This document shows positions 13,901-59,815 of a DNA stretch of 64,000 bases, piece by piece. Source of the DNA: Patescibacteria group bacterium (GTDB taxonomy: Bacteria > Patescibacteriota > Microgenomatia > UBA8517); the NCBI GenBank assembly GCA_022868165.1, contig JALHYA010000010.1, forward strand, positions 375 to 64,374. Direction: 5' to 3'. Within the stretch, counting starts at the first letter, position 1; every line of letters begins with the position of its first letter. The notes beneath the pieces were generated by a model. The model made no database searches, was not told the origin of the DNA, and was given only the letters and a program-made list of their open reading frames with translations. The translations under genes and the position numbers were made by a program.

Positions 13901-16900
13901 CCGACTTGGCCGGCACTGTCAATATATATCCTACTGGTAAGAAATGAATCACCACCGACGGAGCCTTGGACATTAAAGCTACCACCGTTGTAGATATTCA
14001 AGAATGTTTGCGGAGCAGTTGTGGTGGTCTCGGCTCCAAGTGCAATATTGCCCGAGATTGAAGCAGTGGGATTGCCGGAATCGACATTTATAAATGCGAA
14101 CTTGGCCGTGTCGGTGGCAGTTCCGCCTATTAATACATCAACAGTTGAATTTTTGGGATACAAGATTCCCAGGGAATCATTTTGATTCCAATATCCTGTT
14201 GAAGCATTACAGTTTCCGCTTGCATCACAGACGGCATTACCACTTTGAAGCATTGCCTGGGCATAAAAATTGCGCCATTCTAGAGAGGCTGTTCCGAGGT
14301 CGGTTACATCTGTAGCTCCGGGTGTAACCGAACCACCGTCTACGGCATTTAAAGGATTAATTGTGATGTTTCCGGTTGTATCGCCCCCGATAGTTAAGTC
14401 ATTCATAAGAGTGCCCTGAATGCTTCTGGCGCCACCATAGAAGGTTAGATTGCCGGAAACGGTGGCATTTCCGGCTACATCAAGCATCTCCAGGGGAGTA
14501 GTAGTCCCAATTCCCAAGTTTCCGCTTGCGTCAATTCTGGCTTTTTCCGAAGAGGAGATATAAAACCGTATTGTGCCTCCTTGCACTAGGGTTCTTCCAG
14601 CTGAATCACCAAATGTTTGAATTCCTTGTTCGTTGGCGCTTATGCCATTTTGGCTGGACCAAACCAGCGCCTCGACTGTGCTTCCGGGATCGGTGACGTA
14701 CCCGGTGACCCAAGCAGGATCGTTGGGATCGGACGAAAGCGTTCCGATATTCCCATTTCCTGAAGAATCGGAGGTAGAAGTCCCTGTTCCCTCATCGAAA
14801 TGCCAAAGGGCTTTTGTATTGGCATCCGGAGAAAGTTTGGTTGTTTGAGGGGTAAAATTGGCGGTGTTACGAACAACGTTGGACATCTCAATCTCGTCAA
14901 TTTTCCCGTCAAAGTTGTCTTGAGGTGGCCAGTCACCGCCGTCCAGTCCGATTCGCATAAGTCCGTTAAAATAACTCGGCGTGCCAGGATCCCCTTGGAA
15001 CGGTTGGGATTCTATATTTCCATTGATAGCGAAATAAATGGTGTTTGTACCTGTATCTCTTGATACTTGGACGTGGGTCCATGTTCCTAAAGAAACTGTT
15101 CCCGTAGAGTTCATGAATCCAGCGGCATCCGACCAGAACCCAAAAGCTAGTTGACGGGAGGGGTTGATTCCAAAGTACCACTTTCTGGCGTAATCTGTTC
15201 CTTTCTTGTCGATTATGACTCGTGTAGATGCCGCGGTGGTGTCCAAATAAACCCAAGCTCTGATCGTCCAATCACTACCCATAAGGCGGTTAGTGGCGGA
15301 ATCGGGAACTGTAACTCCATCGTCCCCATCAAACTCTAGCGCATAGGGGTCGGACCCGGGTTTTGAAACCAGATTATACCGTGCTGCGTTGTTTGATGTT
15401 GTGGTTCTTGTAACTCTTGTGTATAGGCCGTCTCCGGAGGTAGTTAGCCTTATTTCTGGAGTTACCTTGGAAATTTCTAAATCAGATGCTGGGGCAGAAG
15501 TACCTATACCCACCCTAGAATTGGTGGTATCAAAAGTTGCAAATGCAGAGCCTGAATTATTAAGCACGCTTACATTTCCAGTAGTAGTTCCACCCAAAGA
15601 AAGAGTCTGTTTGGCTGTTGTGGCCAAGGTTCCATCAGCGGATAGATAAGTTGCGCCTGCAGCACCCGCAGAAATAGAAGCTGTGGGTGTACCTGAACCA
15701 ATTACATTTATAAATGCGAACTTGGCTGTGTCTGTGGCCGTTCCTCCGATAAGTACGTCCACAGTTGAGTTTTTGGGGTATATTGTTCCGTTTGTCTGGT
15801 TCCAAACATCATTTGCCCCAGCAAAACAGTTACCACTGACATCACAAACCTGATTACTGTTTTGATATAGCGTCTGGCCGTAAACGTTTCTCCAAGCAAG
15901 ACTCGAAATGCCCAGGTCGGTTACATCGGTTGCGCCGGGGGTAACCGAGCCTTCTGCGACGCCATTAAGAGGCGAAAGGATAATGCCTCCTGTAGAATCT
16001 CCTCCGATTGTTAAATTTCGATTGAGCGTGGTTTGAATTACTCCTGCACTATTAAGAGTTAGATTGCCTGCTATTGATGCAGTGGGTGTGCCAGAATCAA
16101 CATTGATAAACGCGAATTTGGCGGAAGAGGAAGAGGTGCCGCCTATCAACAAATCAACGGTAGAATTTTTAGGATTTAGAACCCCGTTTGCCTGGCCCCA
16201 CCAGTTTATTGCTGTAGCCGCAGTTGCAAAAGCCTGCCAAATTGTTCCATCCGAGAAATAAACCTGATTATCTGTTGAATTATATATAACCGAGCCTGTG
16301 CCGATAGCAGTTGGCAGAGCAACAAATCTTCCCAGCCTAATTTGGTCATTAAAAATTGCTGTTCCGTTTTTAACATATAAAGCTGCGCCTTCCCTTGGAG
16401 CGTTATAGCGGTTTAAGGTGAGGGTTGAGTATGTAGACATTGGTTTGTCGCGCTCATCAAGTGTCAAAGTTAATAGGTCGGCCAGAGCCGAACCGGTTTG
16501 AGTAATTGAGGCGAAATTGCCAGGACTTTGGGTTATTGTAAAATTTCCCGAAGTCTGGCTATAGCCTGTGACGTTGGAAAGTGCGCCGCCGGATGAGAGT
16601 CTTTGAGTTCCTCCCGTTGAAAGATTCCCGCCGATACCCGTATTGCCGAGCGCATCAACACTAAAACGGGTGATTGGTTGTGAGCCGCTTTGAAGCCTTA
16701 TGAGGTCATAACCAGTTGCTCCGTTAGCCACAATGCCATAAAAAAGCGAGCCGGAAGTCAAATTGGGTGCCTGGGCATTTAGGAAATTTTGGCCTGTGCC
16801 TTCAAAAAGAAAATGTGCATATCCGAAACCGTCTGGATTAATTTCAATATTTCCGTCCGAGCCGGTCGGAGTAGAAAGAGTCACTGTTTGGCCTTCAACC

Positions 16901-17745
16901 AAAAGATTTCCCTGTTTGGCGCGAATTGCGGGGGCCTGTGATGCCAAAAGAAGAGAACCGTCGTCGGCAATTACGGGAATTGTGCCCGGACCTGCCCCGA
17001 TTTCCGGGTTGGCGGGAGTGTAGCCTTGGAGATTGGAAGCGGAATTGGCGCTTGAAACCGGAATCCTGTCCTTGATTTCGGTTCCTCCTATGGTTGCGCC
17101 AAGATAAAGCTTATCGTTTCCGAAAAATACATTAGTTGGAACACTATCTAAAGCTATCGTAATATCACCATTTGTATCAGGAGTTTCTTGTTTTGTACCC
17201 GAAGTCCAGAGTGCGGTAGGGTCGTCGGGAGATTTATAAAGTTTGAAAGTTATGCTTTGGGCTCCAAGCGAGGCCGAACCGCTTGCGTCTTTGAGTGTCA
17301 TTTTGGCAAAAATTGTCCAGGGAGAAAGAAGTGTGGAAGTCGATGGTGCTTCGGACGTAGAGCCAGTTGTGGGTTGGCCGGGGCCACCGGTAGGCTGGGG
17401 AAGCTGAGTTACTCTGTTTTCGCTTGCGGGTGTAAACAGGAAGGGTATCGGAAGCTGAAGTTTTCGGGCAAGAAGAAACATAAGAACCAGTGATAAGGCC
17501 AATACGCCAAAACCGATGATTGTTTTTACTCCAGGCTTGCGGCGTTTGGGAGGTTCGAACGCTTCGCTTAAAGGTTGTGTTTGAACTAAGGGATTTTCTT
17601 TTATATGCCCCTTGTTGTGTGCCCAGCCGAAAAATTTATTCAGGCTGGCCATCTTGCGCTTGGCCGTAGTAAAACTTGTAGTTTTTGCAAGCTGGCCTTG
17701 ATATTGGGCTATTAAATCCGGTGATATGTAGGGTAGGTTAGGCAT
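7969..17745 (-). CDS. Giant (3258 aa) membrane-anchored surface protein. Short cytoplasmic N-terminus resembling the second half of an integrase SAM-like domain, one TM helix, a Thr/Pro/Gly-rich stalk, a LamG-like domain, at least five 330-aa repeats and a tail-fibre-like C-terminal region.
   Basis: Single uninterrupted ORF. TM TIIGFGVLALSLVLMFLLARKL. LamG-like 'WTIRAWVYLD...IYFAINGN'. Repeat unit 'NLTIGGDTTGNI..NPLN...VTPG.TDVTDLG.S.L.WRN.Y.Q.....N.VCD.SGNC....YPKNSTVDVLIGGTATDTAKFAFINV' recurs. Matching DNA repeats (ttataaatgcgaacttggc...) lie near 10695, 12430, 12895, 14085, 15705 and 16095. Confidence 0.85.
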   Translation of the reverse strand: MPNLPYISPDLIAQYQGQLAKTTSFTTAKRKMASLNKFFGWAHNKGHIKENPLVQTQPLSEAFEPPKRRKPGVKTIIGFGVLALSLVLMFLLARKLQLPIPFLFTPASENRVTQLPQPTGGPGQPTTGSTSEAPSTSTLLSPWTIFAKMTLKDASGSASLGAQSITFKLYKSPDDPTALWTSGTKQETPDTNGDITIALDSVPTNVFFGNDKLYLGATIGGTEIKDRIPVSSANSASNLQGYTPANPEIGAGPGTIPVIADDGSLLLASQAPAIRAKQGNLLVEGQTVTLSTPTGSDGNIEINPDGFGYAHFLFEGTGQNFLNAQAPNLTSGSLFYGIVANGATGYDLIRLQSGSQPITRFSVDALGNTGIGGNLSTGGTQRLSSGGALSNVTGYSQTSGNFTITQSPGNFASITQTGSALADLLTLTLDERDKPMSTYSTLTLNRYNAPREGAALYVKNGTAIFNDQIRLGRFVALPTAIGTGSVIYNSTDNQVYFSDGTIWQAFATAATAINWWGQANGVLNPKNSTVDLLIGGTSSSSAKFAFINVDSGTPTASIAGNLTLNSAGVIQTTLNRNLTIGGDSTGGIILSPLNGVAEGSVTPGATDVTDLGISSLAWRNVYGQTLYQNSNQVCDVSGNCFAGANDVWNQTNGTIYPKNSTVDVLIGGTATDTAKFAFINVIGSGTPTASISAGAAGATYLSADGTLATTAKQTLSLGGTTTGNVSVLNNSGSAFATFDTTNSRVGIGTSAPASDLEISKVTPEIRLTTSGDGLYTRVTRTTTSNNAARYNLVSKPGSDPYALEFDGDDGVTVPDSATNRLMGSDWTIRAWVYLDTTAASTRVIIDKKGTDYARKWYFGINPSRQLAFGFWSDAAGFMNSTGTVSLGTWTHVQVSRDTGTNTIYFAINGNIESQPFQGDPGTPSYFNGLMRIGLDGGDWPPQDNFDGKIDEIEMSNVVRNTANFTPQTTKLSPDANTKALWHFDEGTGTSTSDSSGNGNIGTLSSDPNDPAWVTGYVTDPGSTVEALVWSSQNGISANEQGIQTFGDSAGRTLVQGGTIRFYISSSEKARIDASGNLGIGTTTPLEMLDVAGNATVSGNLTFYGGARSIQGTLMNDLTIGGDTTGNITINPLNAVDGGSVTPGATDVTDLGTASLEWRNFYAQAMLQSGNAVCDASGNCNASTGYWNQNDSLGILYPKNSTVDVLIGGTATDTAKFAFINVDSGNPTASISGNIALGAETTTTAPQTFLNIYNGGSFNVQGSVGGDSFLTSRIYIDSAGQVGINNAAPSTQLDVTGTGRFSSTLTASNGLTLTTGALNLTGTSGALTLSGLGASSVSFGANDILFTAGNFNTTATGINSTAIGATIRSTGAFTTLDSSGNTTLSSGAGATTTIGNATGTFAVTSTALNVTTAGAVSGVTTLSMSNQLTNSYANTAAINLTGIGAGITFAGTGPNQIITAASQNLALMPGGNVGVGTTSPVEKLDVAGNATVSGNLTFYGGARNIRATLMAILTIGGDTTGDIVVNPLNAIAGGAVKPNTTDVTDLGTSASLEFRNIWGKTIYQSNNQVCDTSGNCLGGATDLWNQDDVNGILYPKNSTVDVLLGGTSTDSAKFAFINMVGTGTPTASVSAGAAGATFLTADGNLATTANQSLTLGGVDTGNIYLQAFGTSTTGLIQIGNGAGSGTPDLLALDIKNTAGDPVSAPDGAMYYNSDSGEMRCKQAGSWGACGTGGGGSSFWTQDDANGILYPMNSTVDVLIGGTATDTAKFAFMNVDSTNSPTASISGTTANVATYLTGEGNLATTNMANLTIGGTSTGNITLSPLNGSGIVDINAATIDLSTQIVGVTLNNAANALNFDSNTLSIDALNNRVGIGTASPLAGFHIVKDDASTNTQIELARITRSTSGGTAATNIGSYTSSYLEDNASSLVEAGRAGFILRNVTAGADTAGEFSVSVERETYTDMIEVLSAYATDGIKYICGNSTRSGGADCFGFTIGSANQTHISFDGTTRLTYDYTSPTLSIMTPSTVNLKFVTLGSGETIIFDEGNDGEDMYVNASGYVGIGSTTVTAATSRLYVTNDYSATGKALAIFNQTESQDIFTASAAGTPRFVITNAGNVGIGTATPGNPLVVVSTDVNHRAMGVFETALANGNRLTQWIGKSIAANSAGYMAYTPNATAYLNNLSLGHYGTDDILNINQSGGVGIGTTSPVEKLAVAGNATVSGNLTFYGGARSIQGTLMNDLTIGGSTTGNIILNPLNALSGGSVTPSTTDVTDLGLSGLEWKEIHGQLIYQGANQVCDTSGAGCTTSGLWAEGTAPTNGGVIYPKNLTEDVLIGGNSTDSAKFAFINVDLASPPTASISAGAAGATYLTADGNLATTANQSLTLGGLTTGNIFLESFGADTGHIQIGDGAGSSNPDLLALDIKNDAGDPAGTAGAVYYNSSGTPKFRCYQGGSWVDCISAGAATGWTLSNPFIYTTNADYQVGIGTTTTADIISKLYVTNDGALTGKALAIFNQPESQDILTASASSVTKMVVSKAGDLTATGFLQIGAAWTPGTIPATSQAYSRFGSAIPDHFGGSTTDWVIFSGDTEFRGTLFLDSADGVGGGISQIADNTGTGTIIFPANEKTTPHELTAGNWMVTNPINTGNVGQAALIVDQQAGGDIFTASFSGSTKFTIANNGNITATGSGTMLTIGGGTGKVDIGTIDPVYNIGGTRYATYLSGMTGVKEETTGNVSTDEFVPGVGYRHSIDFKDAQNGSDLWLFSKTTNLKNNMGKMVVLLSPAGNTRAWYDVDTRNYLLSIYTARPTTVSYRLTAPRFDYTTWTNLNDNPSATGFDIKDENLTVNPNGDVKPPVIPSLADFEIVSQQAYGIQNIVYSIWTKAGQIIDELGAFGNLIAGNILAGAIQVQEVTSNLLTANKIISPLADIDTVRTRLISPLPDQTDVAVQIGGAGTDSGQLVIQNASGSAVASVDTAGNASFSGQVTSDKLQVTSSASIAGTLYADDIKSTTLDDIQNLLHQVEQDQNLLAQAATWNANTATGSSAIANIQNLFVTDQAAINSLSVSTSISVGTDLVFQSQNTQYGILNTVNSLSAPLSLQSLAMAPVEIMAGKVKVLTNGDVQIEGNLYVAGVVESSGLTVRSINNPVAASIDASGSATFNSVSADKFILAVQAATASADINGTITTNATAGQAIINAGVSEITIKNPSISDYTLVYVTPTSSTLNNVLYVKSKGAGYFTVGFSNPINVDVTFNWWVIDVKQ

Positions 17746-27965: not shown

Positions 27966-28095
27966 TACAGGGGCTTACAGCGAAATTATAGCAGGATTCA
28001 AGAAAACTCTCGACTTTCAGTCGGGAGATGAATTGAACGCTGATATGTCATTCTCCTTTAGAGGAAACCCCGCTCTTCAGAGCGGGCAGGATGTC
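27966..28095 (-). promoter_or_regulatory. Conserved module of about 120 nt upstream of a tRNA gene. Extended -10 'TGCTATAAT' lies immediately 5' of tRNA-Arg, plus two hairpins. Hairpin 2 also works as a terminator for the upstream PEGA gene: GCCCGCTC-TGAA-GAGCGGG then a T-rich run.
   Basis: About 75 percent identical to 59697-59815, with compensatory stem changes. The core 'CTTGAATsCTGCTATAAT' also occurs at 34337-34359 on the plus strand. Confidence 0.45.
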
Positions 28096-31782: not shown

Positions 31783-33060
31783 ATGTCCGGAGAAATCGAA
31801 CTTCCAAAGGGAACGGCAGTTCCCGACCACATTGCAATAATCCCCGACGGCAATAGGCGCTGGGCTCGTGCCAAAGGCTTGCCTACATTGGAAGGACATG
31901 CCCGCGGGTTTGACAGAGCAGTGGAAGTTTCGAGAGCGGCGCGAAATGCCGGCATTCATACGGTCACCCTTTGGGGTTTTTCGACCGAGAATTGGGAGAG
32001 AAGCAAGGAAGAAGTCGGCTATTTAATGAGACTTTACGAAAAATTGGTTGACGATTATTTAAAGGAAGCAAAGAAAGATAAGGTAAGAATAGTACATTTG
32101 GGACGAAAGGACCGAATTCCAAAGTCGCTTCTGGCCAAAATTGTAAAAGCCGAGACCGAAACTAAAGAAAACGACCGCTACATTATGAATGTCTGTATAG
32201 ATTATGGCGGACATGACGAGGTCCTAAGAGCAACCCAAAAGATGATTGCGGACGGCGTTTCCGCCGAAAACATTGATAAAAAGCTCTTCGAAAGCTATCT
32301 GGATACCGCCGGTCAGCCTTACCCCTATGTTGATTTGATTATAAGGACCTCTGGGGAGCAGCGCGTAAGCGGATTTCTGATTTGGCAGGCTGCATATGCC
32401 GAATACTATTGGGAAGATGTGCATTTTCCGGATTTTTCTCCCGAAAGGCTTAAATTGGCTATTTTGGATTATTCCAGGCGAAGGCGCAGATTTGGCGGAA
32501 ACGACGCCATGGAGCACTTTAGTTTTGACCCGGAAGTAGTGGCTAAACTCGAGCTGGCCTGGTGGAGGTTGAGCAAGATCCCCGAAGGAACAAGGTTCAG
32601 GGATTATGCAATGAAGCATCTCAGGGAACAATTCGGCCTATCCAAAACCCATGCCAAAGAAGCCGCGAAGTATATGATTGAGGCGGCCTTAGAGGAAAAT
32701 AACGGCAGAAATTGGGAAAAGGCCAAAAGAGAGCTTAAAAAGTTCTACAAACTTATTAAAAGTGAACTCAAACTGGCGTTTGAGCCCTCTATTGTTGCTT
32801 CTTTGGAAGTAAAACTTAGGCGAGGGCTGGAAGACAAGGATTCTGTTGAGGCGGCGGGGGAGCTTGAAGAAACAGCAAGAAGTCTTTATGCCGAAACATA
32901 CCGCATTTCGCTCCTGCAGGCCGCAAAGCTGGGACACTTAAGGATAATGGCGGCCGTTGAGAGAAATTTGGCCGAAGCTGGAATGGGCGACAAGCATTGG
33001 ATTCGCGCCCAAGACTATCTCGAGAGATTTTATCGGGCTCTGAAAGAGCGCGTAGCGTAA
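31783..33060 (+). CDS. uppS: Undecaprenyl-diphosphate synthase (cis-prenyltransferase) fused to a C-terminal alpha-helical extension of about 190 aa and unknown function.
   Basis: 'HIAIIPDGNRRWARAKG', 'TLWGFSTENWERSKEEV' and 'DLIIRTSGEQRVSGFLIWQAAYAEYYWEDVHFPDF' are UPPS motifs. Residues from about 235 to 425 have no recognisable motif. Confidence 0.85.
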   Translation: MSGEIELPKGTAVPDHIAIIPDGNRRWARAKGLPTLEGHARGFDRAVEVSRAARNAGIHTVTLWGFSTENWERSKEEVGYLMRLYEKLVDDYLKEAKKDKVRIVHLGRKDRIPKSLLAKIVKAETETKENDRYIMNVCIDYGGHDEVLRATQKMIADGVSAENIDKKLFESYLDTAGQPYPYVDLIIRTSGEQRVSGFLIWQAAYAEYYWEDVHFPDFSPERLKLAILDYSRRRRRFGGNDAMEHFSFDPEVVAKLELAWWRLSKIPEGTRFRDYAMKHLREQFGLSKTHAKEAAKYMIEAALEENNGRNWEKAKRELKKFYKLIKSELKLAFEPSIVASLEVKLRRGLEDKDSVEAAGELEETARSLYAETYRISLLQAAKLGHLRIMAAVERNLAEAGMGDKHWIRAQDYLERFYRALKERVA

Positions 33061-33405: not shown

Positions 33406-33471
33406 AAAGGAAGCCGTCCTCTGGCTCCTTGGGATGCAGGAAAAGACCGAATGAGGTAAAATAGCCTCGCA

Positions 33472-34269
33472 GTGCAAAAACTCACAATTGTTAAGCTTGG
33501 CGGAAGCCTTATTACGGATAAAAACCGGCCGTTAGTTTCCCGCGAGGCAGTTATTAAAAGACTTGCCGAAGAAATTAAATCTGCCTCCAAAAACTACAAA
33601 GGAAAACTGGTTATCGGTCACGGAAGCGGCTCTTTCGGCCACGCTTCAGCTGCAAAATACCAAACTCAAAAGGGCATAGTTAATCGAAACAGCATCAAAG
33701 GAGTCAGCGAAGTGGCGGATGTGGCCAGTCAGATTACCAAAATTGTTATAAAACAGCTTAGAAAAGCCGGTATTCCGGCTGTCGCTTTTGCCCCCGGAAG
33801 CTTTATCGTTTCAAGCGGCCAAAAACTTCAAGAGTTTTTCATCGAGCCCATCAAAGAGGCTCTTGGGTGTGGAGTTGCGCCTCTGGTTTATGGTGATGTG
33901 GTTTTTGACAAAAAACAAGGCTTTTGTATCTTTTCCACGGAGAAAGTAATTGGAGTGATAGTGGGTGAGCTTCACAACAAGTACAAAATCGAGCAAATTA
34001 TCTATTGCGGCATCACCGACGGCGTTTACGACGAGGATGGAGAGACGATTCCCCTTATCAACTCGAAAACTTTTGGCGCTTTCAAAAAAGCAATCGGAGT
34101 ATCCGGCGCCACAGACGTCACGGGTGGGATGATTCACAAAGTTCAGGAGAGCTTGGAGCTTGCCAAGAAATACAAAACGAGGGTTTTGATCATCAACGGA
34201 ATCAAGCCCGGCAATCTCAAAAAAGCAATTCTCAGCAAAAAAGTTGCCGGGACAAAGATATCAAAATAA
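33472..34269 (+). CDS. Isopentenyl phosphate kinase (amino-acid-kinase fold), GTG start.
   Basis: 'KLGGSLITDK', 'VIGHGSGSFGH' and 'GATDVTGGMIHK' align with archaeal isopentenyl phosphate kinase motifs (KLGGS, HGGGxFGH, DVTGGM). Confidence 0.75.
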   Translation: MQKLTIVKLGGSLITDKNRPLVSREAVIKRLAEEIKSASKNYKGKLVIGHGSGSFGHASAAKYQTQKGIVNRNSIKGVSEVADVASQITKIVIKQLRKAGIPAVAFAPGSFIVSSGQKLQEFFIEPIKEALGCGVAPLVYGDVVFDKKQGFCIFSTEKVIGVIVGELHNKYKIEQIIYCGITDGVYDEDGETIPLINSKTFGAFKKAIGVSGATDVTGGMIHKVQESLELAKKYKTRVLIINGIKPGNLKKAILSKKVAGTKISK

Positions 34270-34377
34270 TTCGTCGCTGAAAGCTGCGATTGAAGCTATC
34301 CCAATAATGGTTTCTTCCTCCCCAAATCAAATTGCAGCGTCTTCTTGAATGCTGATATAATTAGTGGTTGTATTCCC

Positions 34378-35244
34378 ATGCGTTACTTTTCGACAATTTC
34401 GATCTTTTTTATTGCCCTGGTTGCGAGTGTTGTTATCTCAACCGGAATCATTTTTGCGGCCTTTCCCACGCCTAGCCCGACGGCTACGCCCACTTCGGAG
34501 CCTACGGCCGCCCCGTTCAATCAGGTACCAACTTTAGGACCTTTGGAAACTATCCTAAAAGGACAGAATTTGGGCCCGGTCTGGCCAGTCAACCCCATTA
34601 AGTACGCTATTCGCGGTGCAGTGGCGGCCGGTGTTCCCGCAAATACTTTGGCCCTGCTTTTGCTTTTGCCCTTGGTTGCGATGGTTATTGCCGCAATCAG
34701 ACATCTGGTTGGTCTTAGGGGTTTCGGAATTTTCCTTCCGGCGGCTTTATCTGTCGTATTTTTGGCCATAGGGCCAATTTTGGGAATAGGGCTGTTTTTG
34801 GTCATTGTTTTGGTTTCGACCATAGTCAGAATAATTATGCGCACCCTTAAACTTAAGCTTCAATATCTTCCCAAAATGGCGTTAATTTTCTGGTTTGTTT
34901 CTTTTGCGGTATTGGGAGTGCTTTTTGCCGCCCCGTTAATCAGCTGGTTCGCCTTGCCCAATGTATCCATTTTCGCGGTGCTTTTTCTCACGCTTCTGGC
35001 CGAGGATTTTACCCGCGTCCAGCTTGGCAAAAGCTTCCACACCGCCATTAGTTTAACAACGGAAACTTTGATTCTGGCCTTAATCTCTTTTGCGGTTCTT
35101 ACGCTTAAGCCCGTTCAGGAATTTGCGATTCTCAAACCGGAAATTTACCTTTTGAGTATCTTTATCTTTGATTTCCTTCTGGGCAGATATGCGGGCTTGA
35201 GAGTCATGGAGCTTTGGAGATTCCGTAAATTAACCTCACAATGA
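34378..35244 (+). CDS. Polytopic membrane protein (about 7-8 TM), first gene of the ATP-grasp/peptidase operon. Start moved to the ATG at 34378; the track ORF starts at a TTG lying inside the promoter motif.
   Basis: Multiple hydrophobic helices. The promoter-like 'CTTGAATGCTGATATAAT' at 34342-34359 overlaps the track start. Stop overlaps the next ATG (ATGA). Confidence 0.6.
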   Translation: MRYFSTISIFFIALVASVVISTGIIFAAFPTPSPTATPTSEPTAAPFNQVPTLGPLETILKGQNLGPVWPVNPIKYAIRGAVAAGVPANTLALLLLLPLVAMVIAAIRHLVGLRGFGIFLPAALSVVFLAIGPILGIGLFLVIVLVSTIVRIIMRTLKLKLQYLPKMALIFWFVSFAVLGVLFAAPLISWFALPNVSIFAVLFLTLLAEDFTRVQLGKSFHTAISLTTETLILALISFAVLTLKPVQEFAILKPEIYLLSIFIFDFLLGRYAGLRVMELWRFRKLTSQ

Positions 35245-36521
35245 AGTTATCATCAATTTTGGGTTTAAATGCCCGCACGCAGCTTTTTTCCTACCGTTAT
35301 AACACCCGTAAGGGCAAAAAAATTGCCGACTCGAAGCTTCAAACCGCGAAGATATTGAAAGTAACCGGCATTCCGCACCCCGTCATCTATAAAAAATTTC
35401 ACAAACTTTCCGATATCAACGAATTTGGTTGGAATACTCTTCCGGATTCCTTTGCCCTAAAGCCTTCCCGTGGCTTGGGCGGCGAAGGAATTGTAGTTGT
35501 CAAAAAGCGCGCCGGGGACGGCAACGGCTGGATTACTACCCAGAGGGCGCGGGTGACGATTGACGATTTAAAGCTTCAGGCATTGGACATTTTGGAAGGT
35601 GCCTACAGCATGGGCAACGAGCCCGACGTTGCTTTTGTGCAGGAATACGTCGGCCGTCATAAAGCTTTTCGAAGATATGCATACCGGGGCACTCCGGATA
35701 TTAGAATTATCGTATTTAATAAAGTTCCTATTATGGCGATGCTTCGACTTCCCACAAAAGAATCCGGGGGCAGGGCAAACCTTCATCAGGGAGCCATCGG
35801 AGTAGGAGTGGATATTGCCACAGGAATTACCACCAAGGCTATTTGGCATGGAAATTTAATCAAATTTAAGCCCGGAACGGAAAGAAAGCTCAACGGGATA
35901 AAAGTTCCGGAATGGACCAAGATATTGGAAACCGCGGTTAGGGCCCAGATGGCTTCGGGCTTGGGATATTTGGGAGTAGATATTGTGTTGCATCCGGAAA
36001 AGGGACCGATGGTTTTGGAGCTTAATGCCCAGCCCGGACTTCAGATTCAGCTTGCCAATATGGCGGGACTTAAAAAAAGAGTAGAAAGGGTTGAAGATTT
36101 GGAAGTTCGGGACGCGGAGCACGGCGTAAGAATTGCCAAGGCTCTTTTTGCCGAACGCTTTTCCGACAGGGTGAAAGCGGAGGAAGGCATTAAAACCGTT
36201 AGCGTCTGGGAGACTATAAAAATTGTTTCCGCAAAAGGAGAAAAGGTTGAAGTTAAGGCCAAGATAGATACGGGGGCATGGAAAACTTCCATCGACGAAA
36301 CCCTGGCCAAAAACCTCGGCATTTTGGGAAAAAGCAATGTGCTATGGACGCAGCTATATAAAAGTGGTCTGGGACAGGAGAAAAGAAAAGTAATAAGTTT
36401 GACATTTTATTTGGCTGGTCGAAGAATCAATACTTTGGCAAACGTTGCCCATAGGGAGCACTTGCGCTCGCCGGTAATAATCGGGAGACGTGATTTGGTC
36501 GGATTTCTGGTAAAATCTTAA
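35241..36521 (+). CDS. RimK-like (alpha-L-glutamate-ligase-related) ATP-grasp enzyme fused to a C-terminal retropepsin-like aspartyl-protease domain (DUF785, 'putative ATP-dependent zinc protease' family).
   Basis: ATP-grasp: 'SFALKPSRGLGGEGIVVV', 'VAFVQEYV' and 'LGVDIVLHPEKGPMVLELNAQPGL'. C-terminal 'VKAKIDTGAWKTSIDETLAKNLGIL' carries the D-T-G-A motif. Confidence 0.75.
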   Translation: MKLSSILGLNARTQLFSYRYNTRKGKKIADSKLQTAKILKVTGIPHPVIYKKFHKLSDINEFGWNTLPDSFALKPSRGLGGEGIVVVKKRAGDGNGWITTQRARVTIDDLKLQALDILEGAYSMGNEPDVAFVQEYVGRHKAFRRYAYRGTPDIRIIVFNKVPIMAMLRLPTKESGGRANLHQGAIGVGVDIATGITTKAIWHGNLIKFKPGTERKLNGIKVPEWTKILETAVRAQMASGLGYLGVDIVLHPEKGPMVLELNAQPGLQIQLANMAGLKKRVERVEDLEVRDAEHGVRIAKALFAERFSDRVKAEEGIKTVSVWETIKIVSAKGEKVEVKAKIDTGAWKTSIDETLAKNLGILGKSNVLWTQLYKSGLGQEKRKVISLTFYLAGRRINTLANVAHREHLRSPVIIGRRDLVGFLVKS

Positions 36522-36524
36522 TAA

Positions 36525-37451
36525 ATGAACAAACTACTTATCCTGATGGATAGAATTGGGCCTACGACCGAAACGCTTGCCGAATATGTTGGGCGTAATC
36601 TCGGAACCGATTCGCAGCTGGTTTTGGCCCGTTTTTCGGATCTTTTATTCGAACTTCAAGTGGGTAAGTGTAATGTATGGGTTGACGGCACCGGTATTAG
36701 GGAATTTAATCTTGTTTACTTCCGTAGGGTGGGACACGGGTTTCTTTCCACGGCAGGAACTCTTGCTTTGTGTCTTGATAATTTGGGTATAAAATATTTT
36801 GATACGAAATTTAGAGATATAGGCCCTGCGGGAGATAAATTTACTGCACTTACAAAATTGGGAATCGGGGGAATTTCCGTTCCTCACACAATGTATTTGT
36901 GGAAAAAAAACATTTCGGAACACAAGGGAGAAATATTAAAAAGATTGGGAAGCCCGGTTATTGCCAAGGATTATGCAAGCCAAAGGAATACAAAGATATT
37001 TATCTTGAAGGACACAAAAGATTTTGAACAATTAAAATCGGTAAAAATGGAAGAGCGGGAGGCGCAATTTCTTTTCCAGGAATTTATCGATATTGATAAA
37101 GAATTCAGGCTTCTGGTCATGGGAGATAAGGTGGCGGTAGTTCATACAAAAGCGGTTAGAGATTATACGGGTTTCCAGGTAGTGGATAATACGCCTTCGG
37201 ATAATTATGTCTTTATTGACCCCAAAGAAATTCCGGACCAGCTCAAAAAGCTGGCCGTTGCGGCAGCAAAAACTTTGGGAGTGGAAGTGGCCGGCGTAGA
37301 TGCGGCTATAGAGAAAAAGACCGGTAAAAGCTATATTCTTGAGGATAACCGCGGTCCGGGTTTTTTGCACGATCCCGCCAGGTCTCCGGAATTACCCGAA
37401 CTCGCAAAATTTTTTGCGAAAGAGCTTCGAAGCCCAAAATGGTTAAAATAA
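36525..37451 (+). CDS. Second RimK-like ATP-grasp ligase.
   Basis: 'GSPVIAKDYASQRNTKIFIL', 'LFQEFID...FRLLVMGDKVAVV' and 'VAGVDAAIEKKTGKSYILEDNRGPGF' are ATP-grasp signatures. Confidence 0.75.
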   Translation: MNKLLILMDRIGPTTETLAEYVGRNLGTDSQLVLARFSDLLFELQVGKCNVWVDGTGIREFNLVYFRRVGHGFLSTAGTLALCLDNLGIKYFDTKFRDIGPAGDKFTALTKLGIGGISVPHTMYLWKKNISEHKGEILKRLGSPVIAKDYASQRNTKIFILKDTKDFEQLKSVKMEEREAQFLFQEFIDIDKEFRLLVMGDKVAVVHTKAVRDYTGFQVVDNTPSDNYVFIDPKEIPDQLKKLAVAAAKTLGVEVAGVDAAIEKKTGKSYILEDNRGPGFLHDPARSPELPELAKFFAKELRSPKWLK

Positions 37452-37921
37452 CCAAGCTTAAAGAGGAAGAAGCAGGTATTTTTAGAAAACTCCTTTTGAA
37501 GATATTTATTGAAAGCTTTAGTTACTATCCTTTACGGGCCCAAAAGTTCAACAAAAGATACTGGAGTGTCGGACGGCTTACCCAATATAGTCATAAAAAG
37601 ATCATTTTATTGCTTTTGGCAAGAGAAGCTTCCTTGCCGGTAGGGCTATTAATCGGGAAGTATTATTCCTCGGGAAAGTCTTCAATTCTTTGGTTGGGGG
37701 TATTAATTACCCATAGAGGAAAAGGGATTGGCGCAAAGTTGGTGAAGCACTGGGAGGAGTGGGCGAAGGCCAAAGGCGTACACACATTTAGGACTTCCAC
37801 GGCCGATTTTCAAAACGAAAAGTTTTATAGCAAACTCGGTTTTACAAAATCGCCGGGTTTCGAAATGGATGATTGGGGCATGAAGAAGATGGTTTTTATT
37901 AAAAAAGAATACCATGGATAA
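37439..37921 (+). CDS. GNAT-family N-acetyltransferase.
   Basis: 'LGVLITHRGKGIGAKLVKHWEEWAKAKGV' is motif A (R-x-x-G-x-G/A). Overlaps both neighbouring genes. Confidence 0.7.
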   Translation: MVKITKLKEEEAGIFRKLLLKIFIESFSYYPLRAQKFNKRYWSVGRLTQYSHKKIILLLLAREASLPVGLLIGKYYSSGKSSILWLGVLITHRGKGIGAKLVKHWEEWAKAKGVHTFRTSTADFQNEKFYSKLGFTKSPGFEMDDWGMKKMVFIKKEYHG

Positions 37922-39737
37922 TATGGAGCAAGAATTAACTCCGGCCTACCCTTATCCTTTAAGGTCATCTGAAATTATTAATCGGATAAACTTATCAAGT
38001 TTAACCCCCGAAGTAACCCTCTCAGATGGAGAAAGGAAGGGATTGTTCGATTTTGAGCAGCCGCTTTTTGAACAACTCAAAGCATTAAAAGATATATCCG
38101 TTTCGGGCCATGTTATCTACCCTGCCGCTTTTACAACCGAAAAAGGCAAAAGCTTATTTCAGGCCACATATTTGGATACTGGCCTGGAGCAAAAGATAAA
38201 AGATAAAGCGCAAAGCTTGGGTTTAAATTGGGATGATGAAAAAGAACAAAGGGTGGCTTGCGAACAATTCTTTGATGAACTAGAAAAAGATATTGAGACC
38301 GTGAGTGAAGGACCAAGACTTGGAGAGGTTGACGAAGAAAACATTAAGCTTTTATCTTCCGAAGCAGACTTAACGAAAATTCCCGAAAGAATCAGAGAAA
38401 GATTAGGTATTTGGAGTGCCAAGTGGGCAAAAAAAGAGTTTAAAAGGCGTTTTCTAGAGGCAGCCGGAAAATTGGAAGATTTACCCAATCCTGCCAGAAT
38501 CTCAAGGGCAGTTGAATTGGAAGATTTTAAGAAAAAAGAAGAGGGCCTGCGTAGGCTGAAAAAAGACATAAAGGGAATAAAATCTTCTAAGGAGGCCGGG
38601 TTGCCATTGGAAAAAGCGGAAGTCGAAGTATGCAATCTTTACATTCGATACATAAACGTTTTAATCGCCAGTTTATACCCCTATAAAAAAATTGAGAGCG
38701 GCATTACACCTCGCTCTATGGAAAGAATCGACCATTTTTTGAGCGGAGTCGGACTTCAGTTTGGAGAAAACGGTCTTTTACAAACTATTCCGGAGCATCT
38801 TGCAAATTATGCCAAAAAACGTTTGGCCGAAATGTCCGAGATTTCTGAGACAGCGGAATACCAAAAATACAACTCTTTTCGGCTTAACGCTCCGCAGGTT
38901 AAGATTTTGGCAGAAAAGATTCTTGACGGATATGGTCTGAAAAAAAAAGGTTGGGAGGCTGTTGTTCTGGAAAGACAGGGGGGGTTGGCAGTAGAATTTG
39001 ATTCGGAAAAGAATACCCGCGAGGTCAAAATTCCCAGAAGTTTCAAAAGCGGCCTGGCGCGCACTTTGCCGCTTTTGGCCCACGAAATTGAAGGACATGT
39101 TCTGCGATATGCGAATAAGGAAGATGCTGCCGGTGGGCTTCGAATCATCCAAGAATTATCTACCGGAAGAGGAAGTATTTTGTCCGAAGGAGCGGCAATG
39201 TGGATGGAAGATGCAACAAAAAAGGAAATGTTTGGGATGGCAGACCCCGCACTTCCTTATTATTGGCTTGCTTCGTCGATAAAAGCTAAGGGCGGAAGTT
39301 TTAAGGATTGTTTTTATGCCTCCCTTCAGGAAAGAGCAAAAGTCGTGCATAATATGACGGTTGAAGAACTGATGAAAGATAGGGAGAAATTTGACAAAGA
39401 ATTTAGTAAGGCTTATTCAAGTACCTTAAGAATTTTTGGAAGATTTACCGACCTTGACGATACCAGCGGATATATTGCCATATCCGACCCGCTGGATTAT
39501 TTGGAACAAGAATTGGTTGTAGAATTTTTAATGAGTCAAAATTCCGGGGATTTTCAAAAGCTTCTTTTTGTGGCCGGCATTGATTTATATTCTGTTGAAT
39601 CTCTGGCGAAAATAAACCTTTTGGATTTAAAAAACGTTAAACAGCCGCTAATGTTTGTTGCCCGGGATCTTTGGCCAAAAATTAAATCCCGCCTTGATGA
39701 GGGACAAAATTTAGAAACAGCAATCGCTTCGATCTAA
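37914..39737 (+). CDS. 607-aa putative zincin metallopeptidase, DUF1704/'QEGLA'-like.
   Basis: 'LPLLAHEIEGHVLRYAN' carries HExxH. 'ILSEGAAMWMED' resembles the QEGLA motif of TIGR02421-type proteins. That family is reported as the genomic partner of alpha-L-glutamate-ligase-like ATP-grasp genes. Confidence 0.55.
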   Translation: MDNMEQELTPAYPYPLRSSEIINRINLSSLTPEVTLSDGERKGLFDFEQPLFEQLKALKDISVSGHVIYPAAFTTEKGKSLFQATYLDTGLEQKIKDKAQSLGLNWDDEKEQRVACEQFFDELEKDIETVSEGPRLGEVDEENIKLLSSEADLTKIPERIRERLGIWSAKWAKKEFKRRFLEAAGKLEDLPNPARISRAVELEDFKKKEEGLRRLKKDIKGIKSSKEAGLPLEKAEVEVCNLYIRYINVLIASLYPYKKIESGITPRSMERIDHFLSGVGLQFGENGLLQTIPEHLANYAKKRLAEMSEISETAEYQKYNSFRLNAPQVKILAEKILDGYGLKKKGWEAVVLERQGGLAVEFDSEKNTREVKIPRSFKSGLARTLPLLAHEIEGHVLRYANKEDAAGGLRIIQELSTGRGSILSEGAAMWMEDATKKEMFGMADPALPYYWLASSIKAKGGSFKDCFYASLQERAKVVHNMTVEELMKDREKFDKEFSKAYSSTLRIFGRFTDLDDTSGYIAISDPLDYLEQELVVEFLMSQNSGDFQKLLFVAGIDLYSVESLAKINLLDLKNVKQPLMFVARDLWPKIKSRLDEGQNLETAIASI

Positions 39738-39820
39738 ATTGCCAACCAAGCTGATATAATACCCCTACTGGCTCTTTGGCAGACAAATCTCAATAACTCC
39801 ACTTAGAGAGGAGGAGTCTC

Positions 39821-40129
39821 ATGAATCGTGACGAAGAAGATCCCGTTCGGTACGTAGTGGACAATCGGCATGTCCGCCTTGCGGCGGTCCTTGTAGTTCT
39901 AGGGGCGCTGCTCTTGTCTATCGCTACCATCGCCTTTACCAATGGAAGGCCACTGGTGTAGGGATTTTTCTTTCTGGCCGGACTTTGCTTGGCTTCTCTG
40001 GGGCTGTTCTTCAGACCCGGGGAACATACTCGGAGAGCGAGTGGCTTCCTTTTCGGAACGTATCTTGCTTCCGGAGTGGGAGCTCTAGTTCTTCTGGTAT
40101 ATGCCGGAGTCCGAAATCTCCTTCACTGA
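39821..40129 (+). CDS. Small membrane-protein ORF (strong SD GAGGAGG, then ATG at 39821) interrupted by an in-frame TAG at 39959-39961. The same frame continues to TGA at 40127-40129, encoding two or three more hydrophobic helices.
   Basis: Manual translation: MNRDEEDPVRYVVDNRHVRLAAVLVVLGALLLSIATIAFTNGRPLV*GFFFLAGLCLASLGLFFRPGEHTRRASGFLFGTYLASGVGALVLLVYAGVRNLLH*. Confidence 0.3.
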
Positions 40130-40142
40130 TGGAGAAAGGAGC

Positions 40143-40188
40143 ACAAAAGGTGCGCGGAGAAATCCGTCAAAAGATTGCTTCGCGCACC
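40143..40188 (-). terminator. Rho-independent terminator downstream of rplL.
   Basis: Minus-strand RNA GGUGCGCG...CGCGCACC stem followed by UUUUGU. Confidence 0.55.
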
Positions 40189-40201
40189 AAGTTTTTTAAA
40201 A

Positions 40202-40627
40202 TTACTTCAATTCAACCGTTGCTCCGGCTGCCTTGAGTTTGTCGGCTGCCGACTTTGCATCTTCAGCTTTAGCGTCCTTTAGAATTTCTGCAGGAACCTG
40301 CTCTGTCATATCCTTAGCCTCTTTGAGTCCCAAATTGGGATTAATCTCGCGAAGCGCTTTAATAACTGCAATTTTATTTGCTCCGCCATTAGTCATAATA
40401 ACCGTCTGAACAGCGGCCCCACCTGCGGCTTGGCCGCCTGCTGCCGGTGTTTCTCCGGCTGCCGGTGCGGCTGTTGCTGGAGCTGCCACTGGGGCAACCG
40501 CGCTAACTCCGAGTTTTTCCTGGAGTGCACTTACCAAATCCGAAAGCTCCAAAACAGAGAGCTTGGAGATTTCTTCTACCAATTTTTCGACGCTGGCTGA
40601 TAATTTCTTTTCTGCCATTTTAATCAC
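40202..40627 (-). CDS. rplL: Ribosomal protein L7/L12.
   Basis: 'KLVEEISKLSVLELSDLVSALQEKLGV' and the C-terminal 'INPNLGLKEAKDMTEQVPAEILK'. Confidence 0.9.
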   Translation of the reverse strand: MIKMAEKKLSASVEKLVEEISKLSVLELSDLVSALQEKLGVSAVAPVAAPATAAPAAGETPAAGGQAAGGAAVQTVIMTNGGANKIAVIKALREINPNLGLKEAKDMTEQVPAEILKDAKAEDAKSAADKLKAAGATVELK

Positions 40628-41151
40628 CCCGCTTTCGCTTTGAGAACATAAAGAAGTTTCTGTAGATTTCCCTCTAAAACTCCGACCAAACCGTAAGAAG
40701 GGGACATAAGGGTTCCCAAAAGCTGACCCAAAAGAGCGTCCCTGCCGGGCAAAGTGGAAATTATTGCCAAAGATTCCGAGTCGTGGAAGCTTCCTTCTAA
40801 AATTCCGACTTTCATTTGTGGAACCTCAAATTCTTTTGCGAACTTGCCTATAACCTGAATCGGGGCGATTGGGTCCTGGCTGGCTATAACCAAGGCCGTT
40901 TGGCCGGTTAGAATGGAGTCTTTAAGAAGCTCCTCGTCGATTTCGGCTGCCTCACCGGCTCTTTTAAGAAGAGTATTTTTGACAACCAACATAGAAGCTC
41001 CGGCTTCCTTAAGGCGCTTTTTGAGCTCCTGCTGCATCTTAACTCCGAGCCCGGCATAGTTAACCAAGACGACCGACTTGGCGCCTTTCAGCTCCTCGGT
41101 TAGATTTTCTACAAATATTGCTTTTTCTGCCTTCTTCATGTTTTGTTTCAA
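40624..41151 (-). CDS. rplJ: Ribosomal protein L10.
   Basis: 175 aa. Position and L10-like sequence. ATGA overlap with rplL. Confidence 0.85.
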   Translation of the reverse strand: MKQNMKKAEKAIFVENLTEELKGAKSVVLVNYAGLGVKMQQELKKRLKEAGASMLVVKNTLLKRAGEAAEIDEELLKDSILTGQTALVIASQDPIAPIQVIGKFAKEFEVPQMKVGILEGSFHDSESLAIISTLPGRDALLGQLLGTLMSPSYGLVGVLEGNLQKLLYVLKAKAG

Positions 41152-59696: not shown

Positions 59697-59815
59697 AAGG
59701 GAATTATAGCAGCATTCAAGAAGACGCTGCAATTTGATTGCGGCGATGAATTGACGCTGATATGTCATTCTCACTTAGGTGCGAAGCCGCGAAAGCGGAG
59801 AATGCCATAACAAAT
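59697..59815 (-). promoter_or_regulatory. Second copy of the conserved tRNA-upstream module: extended -10 'TGCTATAAT' directly 5' of tRNA-Thr(GGT), plus two hairpins.
   Basis: Aligned with 27966-28095. Shared blocks 'GAGAATGACATATCAGCGT', 'CAATTCATC' and 'TCTTGAATsCTGCTATAAT', with stem covariation between them. Confidence 0.45.

Follow-up and report, generated by a model that had tools for sequence, protein, structure and literature searches.

A Patescibacteria gene cassette related to the Pseudomonas Rlo system, with a ligase-retropepsin fusion and accessory GNAT and MATCAP-like genes

Described systems and the core of the Patescibacteria cassette

The described system closest to the locus analysed here is rloABC of Pseudomonas aeruginosa and P. 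fluorescens, for which genetics and structures were reported by Lormand et al. (mBio 2025; PMC12239564). RloA cuts stretches of at least eight consecutive Glu residues, and when every RloA paralog is missing, cells are defective in tolerating hypo-osmotic conditions, in shape, in antibiotic resistance and in forming biofilms; deletion of rloB or rloC suppresses these defects, and the ligase (RloC) and the seven-transmembrane (7TM) protein (RloB) therefore make what the protease removes (PMC12239564). Polyglutamate is coordinated by RloA residues K46, R114 and R137, mutation of R114 or R137 abolishing both cleavage and complementation in Pseudomonas, and RloB was reported as 96% proteobacterial, a Patescibacteria form not being described in that work (PMC12239564). 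RimB, like RloA, cleaves poly-Glu. The MATCAP/TMCP proteins are gluzincins in which an HExxxH motif is joined by a Glu ligand further downstream; they take residues off C-termini and also shorten chains of polyglutamate (PMC10499314). The locus compared with these systems is a genuine operon of five genes from an ultrasmall, uncultured member of the Patescibacteria, located in a stretch of 64,000 nucleotides (nt) that is referred to as the window (positions 375-64,374 of contig JALHYA010000010.1, assembly GCA_022868165.1). Its genes 1 to 5 (g1-g5) encode a polytopic membrane protein, an ATP-grasp ligase fused to a retropepsin, a second ATP-grasp ligase, a GNAT N-acetyltransferase and a gluzincin, and the loci with which the window was compared are labelled L001-L103.

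The core of the cassette corresponds to Pseudomonas rloABC, and the statement of an earlier, sequence-only reading of this DNA that the combination was not a described system was overtaken by that 2025 publication (PMC12239564). As in Rlo, a single operon brings together a 7TM_transglut protein (RloB), an ATPgrasp_ST/TIGR02291-type ligase (RloC) and a PF05618-type retropepsin (RloA), and the retropepsin shares with RloA the DTGA motif and conserved basic residues of the substrate channel. Unlike in Rlo, the ligase carries the retropepsin at its own C-terminus, which predicts a cytoplasmic protease, whereas RloA is a periplasmic protein with a signal peptide; the 7TM protein is without the inactive periplasmic transglutaminase domain of RloB, having a Pro/Thr-rich linker in its place; the core is in every case joined by one or two extra RimK-like ligases, and optionally by GNAT and MATCAP-like genes; and the host is a Patescibacterium. 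The cassette also resembles RimK-RimB, in which a cytoplasmic ATP-grasp alpha-L-glutamate ligase has as its physical partner a retropepsin limiting or removing the Glu chains: gene 2 would be that complex in cis, gene 3 falls in the RimK superfamily, and the predicted compartment of the gene 2 protease is that of RimK-RimB rather than that of RloA. In contrast to RimK-RimB(-RimA) of Pseudomonas and E. coli, the cassette ligases fall below the RimK equivalog score, a membrane partner is present and RimA is not; and while the acceptor of RimK-RimB is ribosomal protein S6, the analysis gave no evidence that S6 is the acceptor of the cassette.

We read the locus as a Patescibacteria version of the Rlo or RimK-RimB type, a module that writes and erases acidic peptides or tails, probably of poly-alpha-glutamate, and put the probability of this reading at roughly 0.55. 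The general idea of a peptide-tail ligation and processing system, already voiced by the sequence-only reading, is supported by the domains, operon layout, folds, catalytic motifs and gene neighbourhoods described below.

The five open reading frames (ORFs) are co-directional on the + strand, at 34345/34378-35244, 35241-36521, 36525-37451, 37439-37921 and 37914-39737. Read from the sequence, genes 1 and 2 overlap by 4 nt (ATGA), genes 2 and 3 are separated by 3 nt (TAA TAA ATG), genes 3 and 4 overlap by 13 nt and genes 4 and 5 by 8 nt. Overlaps of 4-8 nt, which had been claimed for all junctions, thus hold for g1/g2 and g4/g5 and fail at the other two, and the bases at 37439, given previously as ATGA, are ATGG. 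With their stop and start codons overlapping or abutting, the five genes would be translationally coupled.

Gene 2 carries most of the argument. The N-terminal ~300 amino acids (aa) of its product (35241-36140, +) match a RloC-type ATP-grasp amino-acid ligase of the ATPgrasp_ST, alpha-L-glutamate ligase-like kind (PF14397, 4.1e-67, 226.8 bits against a cutoff of 31.4). TIGR02291 aligned at 3e-82 over positions 9-297 of 317 with 276 bits, which is less than its trusted cutoff of 314; on these profile scores the ligase is RloC-type at the level of the family, with a score below that for equivalog status. The Mg/ATP motif of the ATP-grasp domain is intact, with D247, E260 and N262 invariant. Gene 2 also passes the Pfam RimK domain (36.8 bits, cutoff 21) and falls far short of the RimK equivalogs PRK10446 (24.2 bits, cutoff 331) and TIGR00768 (48 bits, cutoff 143).

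The C-terminal ~107 aa of gene 2 (36198-36521, +) contain the catalytic D343-T-G-A at 36267-36278, a GRRD motif and the basic residues K341, R382 and R405. PF05618 scored this segment at 25.1 bits, slightly below its cutoff of 27, and the domain was therefore examined by structure. An AlphaFold model of gene 2 was confident over residues 320-420 (predicted local distance difference test, pLDDT, 80-90), and all 50 matches listed by Foldseek against the PDB were aspartic proteases, nearly all of them retropepsins, including RloA (9g58), RloA2 (9g59), the PF05618 protein Lpg0085 and ApRick. The best PDB match of a profile built from the domain was RloA2 (6.7e-4), with AKxDTGA, (E/K)RxVI and xxRxx...G aligned; a single-sequence search with the domain gave a weak match to ApRick (E 0.57), and the RloA3 model NF052264 scored gene 2 at 23.8 bits against a cutoff of 210. 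D343-T-G-A346 is at least 98% conserved across 66 distinct gene 2 homologs, and K341, R382 and R405 are invariant in an alignment of 35 sequences (A2); by numbering offset, the latter would match K46, R114 and R137 of RloA. Neither a signal peptide nor a transmembrane (TM) segment was found in the fusion, and the retropepsin is predicted to be cytoplasmic because it is fused to the C-terminus of a cytoplasmic ligase. An ATP-grasp domain fused to a retropepsin with an intact DTGA, as originally proposed, is therefore well founded in profile score, fold and conservation.

Gene 1 (34378-35244, +; 288 aa from its ATG) encodes a RloB-like polytopic membrane protein in which hydropathy and domain scans show an anchor helix at the N-terminus, then ~50 aa of Pro/Thr-rich linker and a 7TM_transglut domain (PF14402, 4.9e-19, 69 bits against a cutoff of 25). 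The RloB model NF052267 aligned with the 7TM part only (model positions 312-505 of 508; 46 bits, cutoff 900), and a transglutaminase domain of the RloB type was not found by Pfam, NCBIfam or hydropathy, the linker standing where it would be expected. In L099, a relative with a gene 2 product of 90% identity, gene calling splits the 7TM gene into two parts of 155 aa and 120 aa (L099:7137-7998), as would fit a pseudogene, a frameshift or a fault of assembly.

Gene 3 (36525-37451, +; 308 aa) was recognised by PF08443 (RimK; 1.5e-13, 51.2 bits against a cutoff of 21), in agreement with its earlier description as a second RimK-like ligase, and D259, E273 and N275 of its ATP-grasp domain are conserved in 41 orthologs, leaving the Mg/ATP motif intact. 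Scores against TIGR00768 (54 bits, cutoff 143) and PRK10446 (28.9 bits, cutoff 331) place it, as far as sequence profiles go, as a divergent ligase of the RimK superfamily far under every equivalog cutoff, and its match to the N-acetylglutaminylglutamine synthetase model TIGR03103 was at chance level (E 0.045).

The best 120 database matches of the gene 2 fusion were full-length and 72-100% identical. Where sources were named, they were Woesebacteria, Saccharimonadia and other Patescibacteria, with generic labels such as 'alpha-L-glutamate ligase-like', and the fusion is ~75% identical between distant Patescibacteria classes. Gene 2 was used to retrieve 80 metagenome loci, whose neighbourhoods were counted; the counts are minima because many of these contigs are incomplete. 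The fusion gene has a 7TM gene directly upstream in 70 of the 80 loci and an ATP-grasp gene directly downstream in 62, followed in 41 by a further ATP-grasp gene; the g1-g2-g3 order is kept in nearly all loci, genes 1-3 thus co-occurring in relatives. The trio of 7TM protein, ligase-retropepsin fusion and RimK-like ligase is a standard and very abundant Patescibacteria cassette, near-universal and highly conserved in these bacteria, and its description as an unusual fusion and concatenation of modules has to be withdrawn. No paper on this cassette in Patescibacteria was found in the literature on Candidate Phyla Radiation (CPR) bacteria with RimK, ATP-grasp or polyglutamate, and the entries of Saccharibacterium transposon-sequencing supplements contained only a canonical, non-essential RimK pair and not the cassette.

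Accessory genes at the 3' end

Cassettes vary at their 3' ends, which can hold a third ligase, an S-adenosylmethionine (SAM) methyltransferase (10 loci), a 183-aa protein without Pfam match (12 loci), DUF3541 or a GNAT. DUF3541 (PF12060, 7e-39) occurs in L009, between the fusion gene and a ligase (L009:7042-8055), and the inserts at L050:8505-9095 and L017:8148-8699 are among the methyltransferase and 183-aa proteins. The claim that the five genes form one system stands for genes 1-3, the GNAT and gene 5 being accessory and the latter absent from relatives that are ~96% identical.

Gene 4 (37439-37921, +; 160 aa) is a GNAT N-acetyltransferase with the acetyl-CoA motif HRGKGIG at residues 92-98, as had been recognised before; it exceeded the cutoffs of PF13508 (1.9e-11, 44.6 bits against 27) and PF00583 (3.4e-10, 40.7 bits against 20.7), and no specific GNAT equivalog or subfamily was reached in the NCBIfam scan. 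Its position is taken by a third ATP-grasp gene in L001 and L095, and the GNAT occurs only in the close relatives L015, L048, L099 and L100; it is an accessory gene of the cassette. No N-terminal signal peptide or TM segment was read in the sequences of the GNAT or of gene 5, and both are therefore placed in the same cytoplasm as the ligases.

Gene 5 (37914-39737, +) encodes a 607-aa cytoplasmic gluzincin of the MATCAP/DUF1704 type, in which a helical N-terminal part of ~300 aa, specific to the gene 5 family, is followed by a catalytic domain at ~38871-39683. The metal motif consists of H390-E-x-x-x-H395 (HEIEGH, 39081-39098, +) and E425 (SEGAA, within LSEgAAM; 39186-39188), and H390, E391, H395 and E425 are invariant in 19 sequences of the family. 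HEIEGH and SEGAA had both been noticed correctly, HEIEGH being an HExxxH motif and not the HExxH it was taken for. Neither Pfam nor NCBIfam matched gene 5, PF08014 giving no match even at E <= 10 for gene 5 or its 18 close homologs, and TIGR02421 did not recognise gene 5 directly. These 18 homologs, retrieved by word index, are all from Patescibacteria wherever the source names an organism, and carry no Pfam annotation; the sole exception in the Pfam and NCBIfam scans of the 19 sequences was one M32 match. Sequence and profile searches of the PDB with gene 5 returned chance-level matches only.

Remote homology was established through profiles, structure and a bridging homolog. PF08014 is reached only by distant relatives, with 35.9 bits against a cutoff of 27 in L013 and, below the cutoff, 20.5 in L014 and 17 for P0147; the Saccharibacteria protein in L013, which passes the PF08014 gathering score, also matches gene 5 at 3e-9 and so bridges the two families. 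In hhalign the gene 5 family aligned with the L013 homolog at 98.5% and with an alignment of 27 PF08014-annotated proteins at 99.6% (E 5e-24, 259 columns), HEIEGH falling on HEIEGH and LSEaAAM on LYEGLAM, such that H390, E391, H395 and E425 coincide column for column with the HEIEGH...YEGLA of PF08014 members. The catalytic fold of gene 5 is homologous to that of MATCAP/DUF1704, and gene 5 is, as profiles and structure show, a divergent and remote relative of this family (PF08014); its initial classification as QEGLA/DUF1704-like was thus confirmed by profile-profile and fold comparison in spite of the lack of direct PF08014 and TIGR02421 matches. Gene 5 shares with MATCAP/TMCP1-2 (KIAA0895L, KIAA0895) and PF08014 the gluzincin fold, the HExxxH motif and the xEGxA Glu ~30 residues later, and it sits behind ATP-grasp ligases; in eukaryotes, MATCAP/TMCP proteins counteract ATP-grasp (TTLL) ligases. 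An exhaustive profile search from gene 5 reached 541 representative clusters at E <= 1e-3; Pfam coverage is missing from nearly every one that was sampled, and the family is uncurated rather than tiny.

An assignment of gene 5 to the M32 carboxypeptidases was considered and rejected: M32 (Taq-type) enzymes have HExxH where gene 5 has HExxxH, PF02074 was not reached, and no sequence-level match of gene 5 to M32 or DUF885 was obtained. Separately, the second gene upstream of a solitary, distant homolog of gene 5 on a Parcubacteria contig encodes a peptidase S51 (PF03575, 2.3e-14; L011:3723-4316). Peptidase S51 is the family of cyanophycinase and dipeptidase E.

Gene 5 is the last cassette gene, abutting or overlapping the gene before it, in the window, L001/L007, L006, L009, L095, L096 and L097. 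Genes between the core and gene 5 differ among these loci, its orientation and 3'-terminal position are the same every time, and cassette linkage appears on three branches of a rough neighbour-joining tree; in L006 and L009 the gene preceding it is a ligase. None of the 80 loci retrieved through gene 2 contains it. When the window was aligned by blastn with L100 and L015, which are 95-97% identical on both flanks, the alignment ran to 37907 and restarted at 39752, the segment present or absent (37908-39751, +) being gene 5 exactly, and tblastn found no trace of gene 5 in L100, L015 or L099. Gene 5 is a recurrent but dispensable accessory gene of the cassette.

Proposed mechanism and alternatives

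Under the Rlo/RimK-RimB-type reading, the 7TM protein would be coupled to the cytoplasmic RloC-type ligase carrying its own retropepsin, with the second RimK-like ligase working alongside. The ligases would build an acidic, alpha-linked chain at the membrane, most likely of oligo- or poly-L-glutamate, either free or on an acceptor, and the fused retropepsin may dimerise, cut within the chains and limit their length in cis. The GNAT would N-acetylate, and thereby cap, an amine of the acceptor or the product, and gene 5, as a putative MATCAP-like metallocarboxypeptidase, would trim residues singly from the C-terminal end, the set amounting to a writer, an endo-eraser and an exo-eraser. If Rlo is a guide, the product would probably matter for osmotic or envelope homeostasis.

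Several observations weigh against this reading. The added amino acid is deduced solely from family names, with gene 2 under the TIGR02291 trusted cutoff and gene 3 far under those of RimK; the correspondence of K341, R382 and R405 to RloA is by numbering offset rather than structure superposition; and the ATP-grasp part of the gene 2 AlphaFold model is of low confidence (pLDDT 54 outside the retropepsin domain). No obvious acidic C-terminal tail, which could mark a substrate, was found among the proteins encoded in the window. Gene 5 is dispensable in near-identical (~96%) strains and solitary in L003, L005, L008 and L098, as are its distant homologs in L010-L014; PF08014 members examined in CPR genomes (including L101-L103) were likewise solitary, among housekeeping genes and with no ligase neighbours. 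Finally, the variable tailoring genes (methyltransferase, DUF3541, extra ligases) would fit a small-molecule pathway equally well.

Such a pathway, in which ligases, GNAT and carboxypeptidase make or recycle a short N-acetylated acidic di- or tripeptide serving as an osmolyte or signal, is the alternative that survives best, and we consider it unlikely. It has analogies in the N-acetylaspartylglutamate pathway, with NAT8L, RIMKLA/B and glutamate carboxypeptidase II, and in N-acetylglutaminylglutamine amide synthesis, with the Ngg GNAT-ATP-grasp enzyme and a peptidase. Two to three paralogous ligases accompanied by variable tailoring genes (GNAT, SAM methyltransferase, DUF3541) are typical of small-molecule clusters, the Rlo system is itself tied to osmotic stress, and the faint TIGR03103 match of gene 3 points in the same direction, but that match is at chance level. 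RloA requires at least eight consecutive Glu, and gene 2 keeps the residues that bind long Glu chains, so that long chains are favoured over short peptides; the GNAT is limited to one small lineage, and N-acetylation therefore cannot be the core chemistry.

In another alternative, somewhat less probable again, gene 5 and perhaps the GNAT too would have entered as passengers where insertion between cassette and rplL is tolerated, gene 5 being an unrelated general peptidase. The clean presence or absence of gene 5 between ~96% identical strains, the commonness of its solitary homologs and its absence from the loci sampled through gene 2 speak for such insertion. Against it stand the linkage in at least seven loci with differing intervening genes, constant orientation, 3'-terminal placement, overlapping or abutting junctions and three tree branches, and the ligase directly ahead of gene 5 in L006 and L009. 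Members of the family are known to take off C-terminal residues and polyglutamate, which also suits the product expected of the ligases (PMC10499314).

The rpl genes bear on a third alternative, as rplL is convergent just past the cassette in 27 of the 80 loci and in the window. Modification of ribosomal-protein tails (S6 glutamylation of the RimK/RimB kind or RimL-type acetylation), with targets from these adjacent ribosomal protein genes, could draw on that proximity to rplL-rplJ, on the RimK-like gene 3, on the RimK-RimB arrangement of a cytoplasmic retropepsin beside a ligase and on the acetylation of L7/L12, S18 and S5 by E. coli GNATs, but it is very unlikely: in convergent orientation the cassette and rplL-rplJ are not co-transcribed, the 7TM membrane partner is obligate and the Rim system is without it, genes 2 and 3 score 24-29 bits against the S6-ligase equivalog cutoff of 331, the L7/L12 protein of the window ends in ...ATVELK without an acidic tail, and a Saccharibacterium with canonical RimK is without this cassette.

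The writer/eraser reading thus remains preferred. A stronger form of it, which we regard as unlikely, would make the cassette a Patescibacteria-wide and strongly constrained membrane machine for a 'glutamylation code', with ATP-grasp writers, a built-in retropepsin eraser and a lineage-specific MATCAP-like end eraser acting on an acceptor protein or the envelope. If this were true, the eukaryotic TTLL/MATCAP writer-eraser pair would have in the operon a prokaryotic counterpart and perhaps its evolutionary source, and the Pseudomonas Rlo system a simpler, all-cytoplasmic model. Having ligase and protease in one polypeptide and compartment, together with extra ligases and sometimes an exopeptidase, the cassette offers a compact, co-expressible set for finding the product in vitro, and the high conservation of the fusion suggests an important role, as yet unstudied, in organisms whose genomes are very small. 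The recurrence of a MATCAP-like peptidase with RimK-like ligases provides a bacterial context for probing the role of MATCAP/DUF1704 and allows one to ask whether acidic-tail writer/eraser logic predates eukaryotes.

Promoter-like elements and flanking genes

A promoter-like element, CTTGAATGCTGATATAAT, is located at 34344-34361 (+) and contains the extended -10-like TGATATAAT, its TATAAT ending 16 nt ahead of the gene 1 ATG. The motif has 3 matches in the window against 0.08 expected by chance, and the other two near-identical copies (27985-28002 and 59703-59720, both -) lie directly upstream of tRNA-Arg and tRNA-Thr. The same site in relatives reads TTGAC(A/C)-N13-TATAAT or TTGACA-N5-TATAAT (L100:7085-7115, L099:7095-7125, L001:3908-3926, L095:1217-1243); the spacing from TTGA(A/C)x to TATAAT is 5 nt in the window and L001 and 13 nt in L100, L099 and L095, compared with a canonical -35/-10 spacing of 17 nt. 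Because TTGAAT stands 5 nt from TATAAT, CTTGAATGCTGATATAAT is not a canonical -35/-10 pair, and it would instead be an extended -10-type element with a putative promoter function. The odd spacing could mean that promoters are built unusually in these Patescibacteria, or that the upstream hexamer is no -35 element at all. Of the proposal that the operon and tRNA genes share a promoter, the observational part, motif copies ahead of two tRNA genes, holds. The TTG start listed for gene 1 (34345) falls within the motif; in relatives TTCCCATGCG is kept while the bases ahead of it differ, and translation therefore probably begins at ATG 34378.

A second promoter-like element, AGCTGATATAAT, follows right after the gene 5 stop and precedes a GGAGG Shine-Dalgarno sequence (region 39749-40201, +). 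In ~96% identical relatives (L100:10852-11160, L015) this region encodes a 102-aa membrane protein with three TM segments, which in the window is truncated after ~46 codons by a TGG->TAG change at ~39958-39960. A non-coding RNA transcribed from AGCTGATATAAT was considered for this conserved stretch and rejected, since relatives encode the membrane protein there; Rfam searches of the window and of 39700-40260 returned tRNAs only.

Upstream of the cassette, a gene with an amino-acid-kinase fold (33472-34269, 265 aa) stands between a helix-turn-helix (HTH) gene and gene 1 (region 33406-34450). L100, L099, L001 and L095 do not have it there, the 7TM gene following straight after the HTH gene in these loci, and a homolog is found upstream in 5 other loci (e.g. 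L016:5871-6668). At 31783-33060 (+) lies an undecaprenyl-diphosphate-synthase homolog (PF01255 in relatives) of 425 aa with a helical C-terminal extension of ~170 aa, a long form also present in L001, L099 and L100. On the other side, rplL-rplJ (40202-41151, -) converge on the cassette and are followed further on by rplA, rplK, nusG and secE, the cassette standing where many bacteria carry rpoBC. Elsewhere in the window, a giant ORF of 3258 aa extends over 7969-17745 (-).

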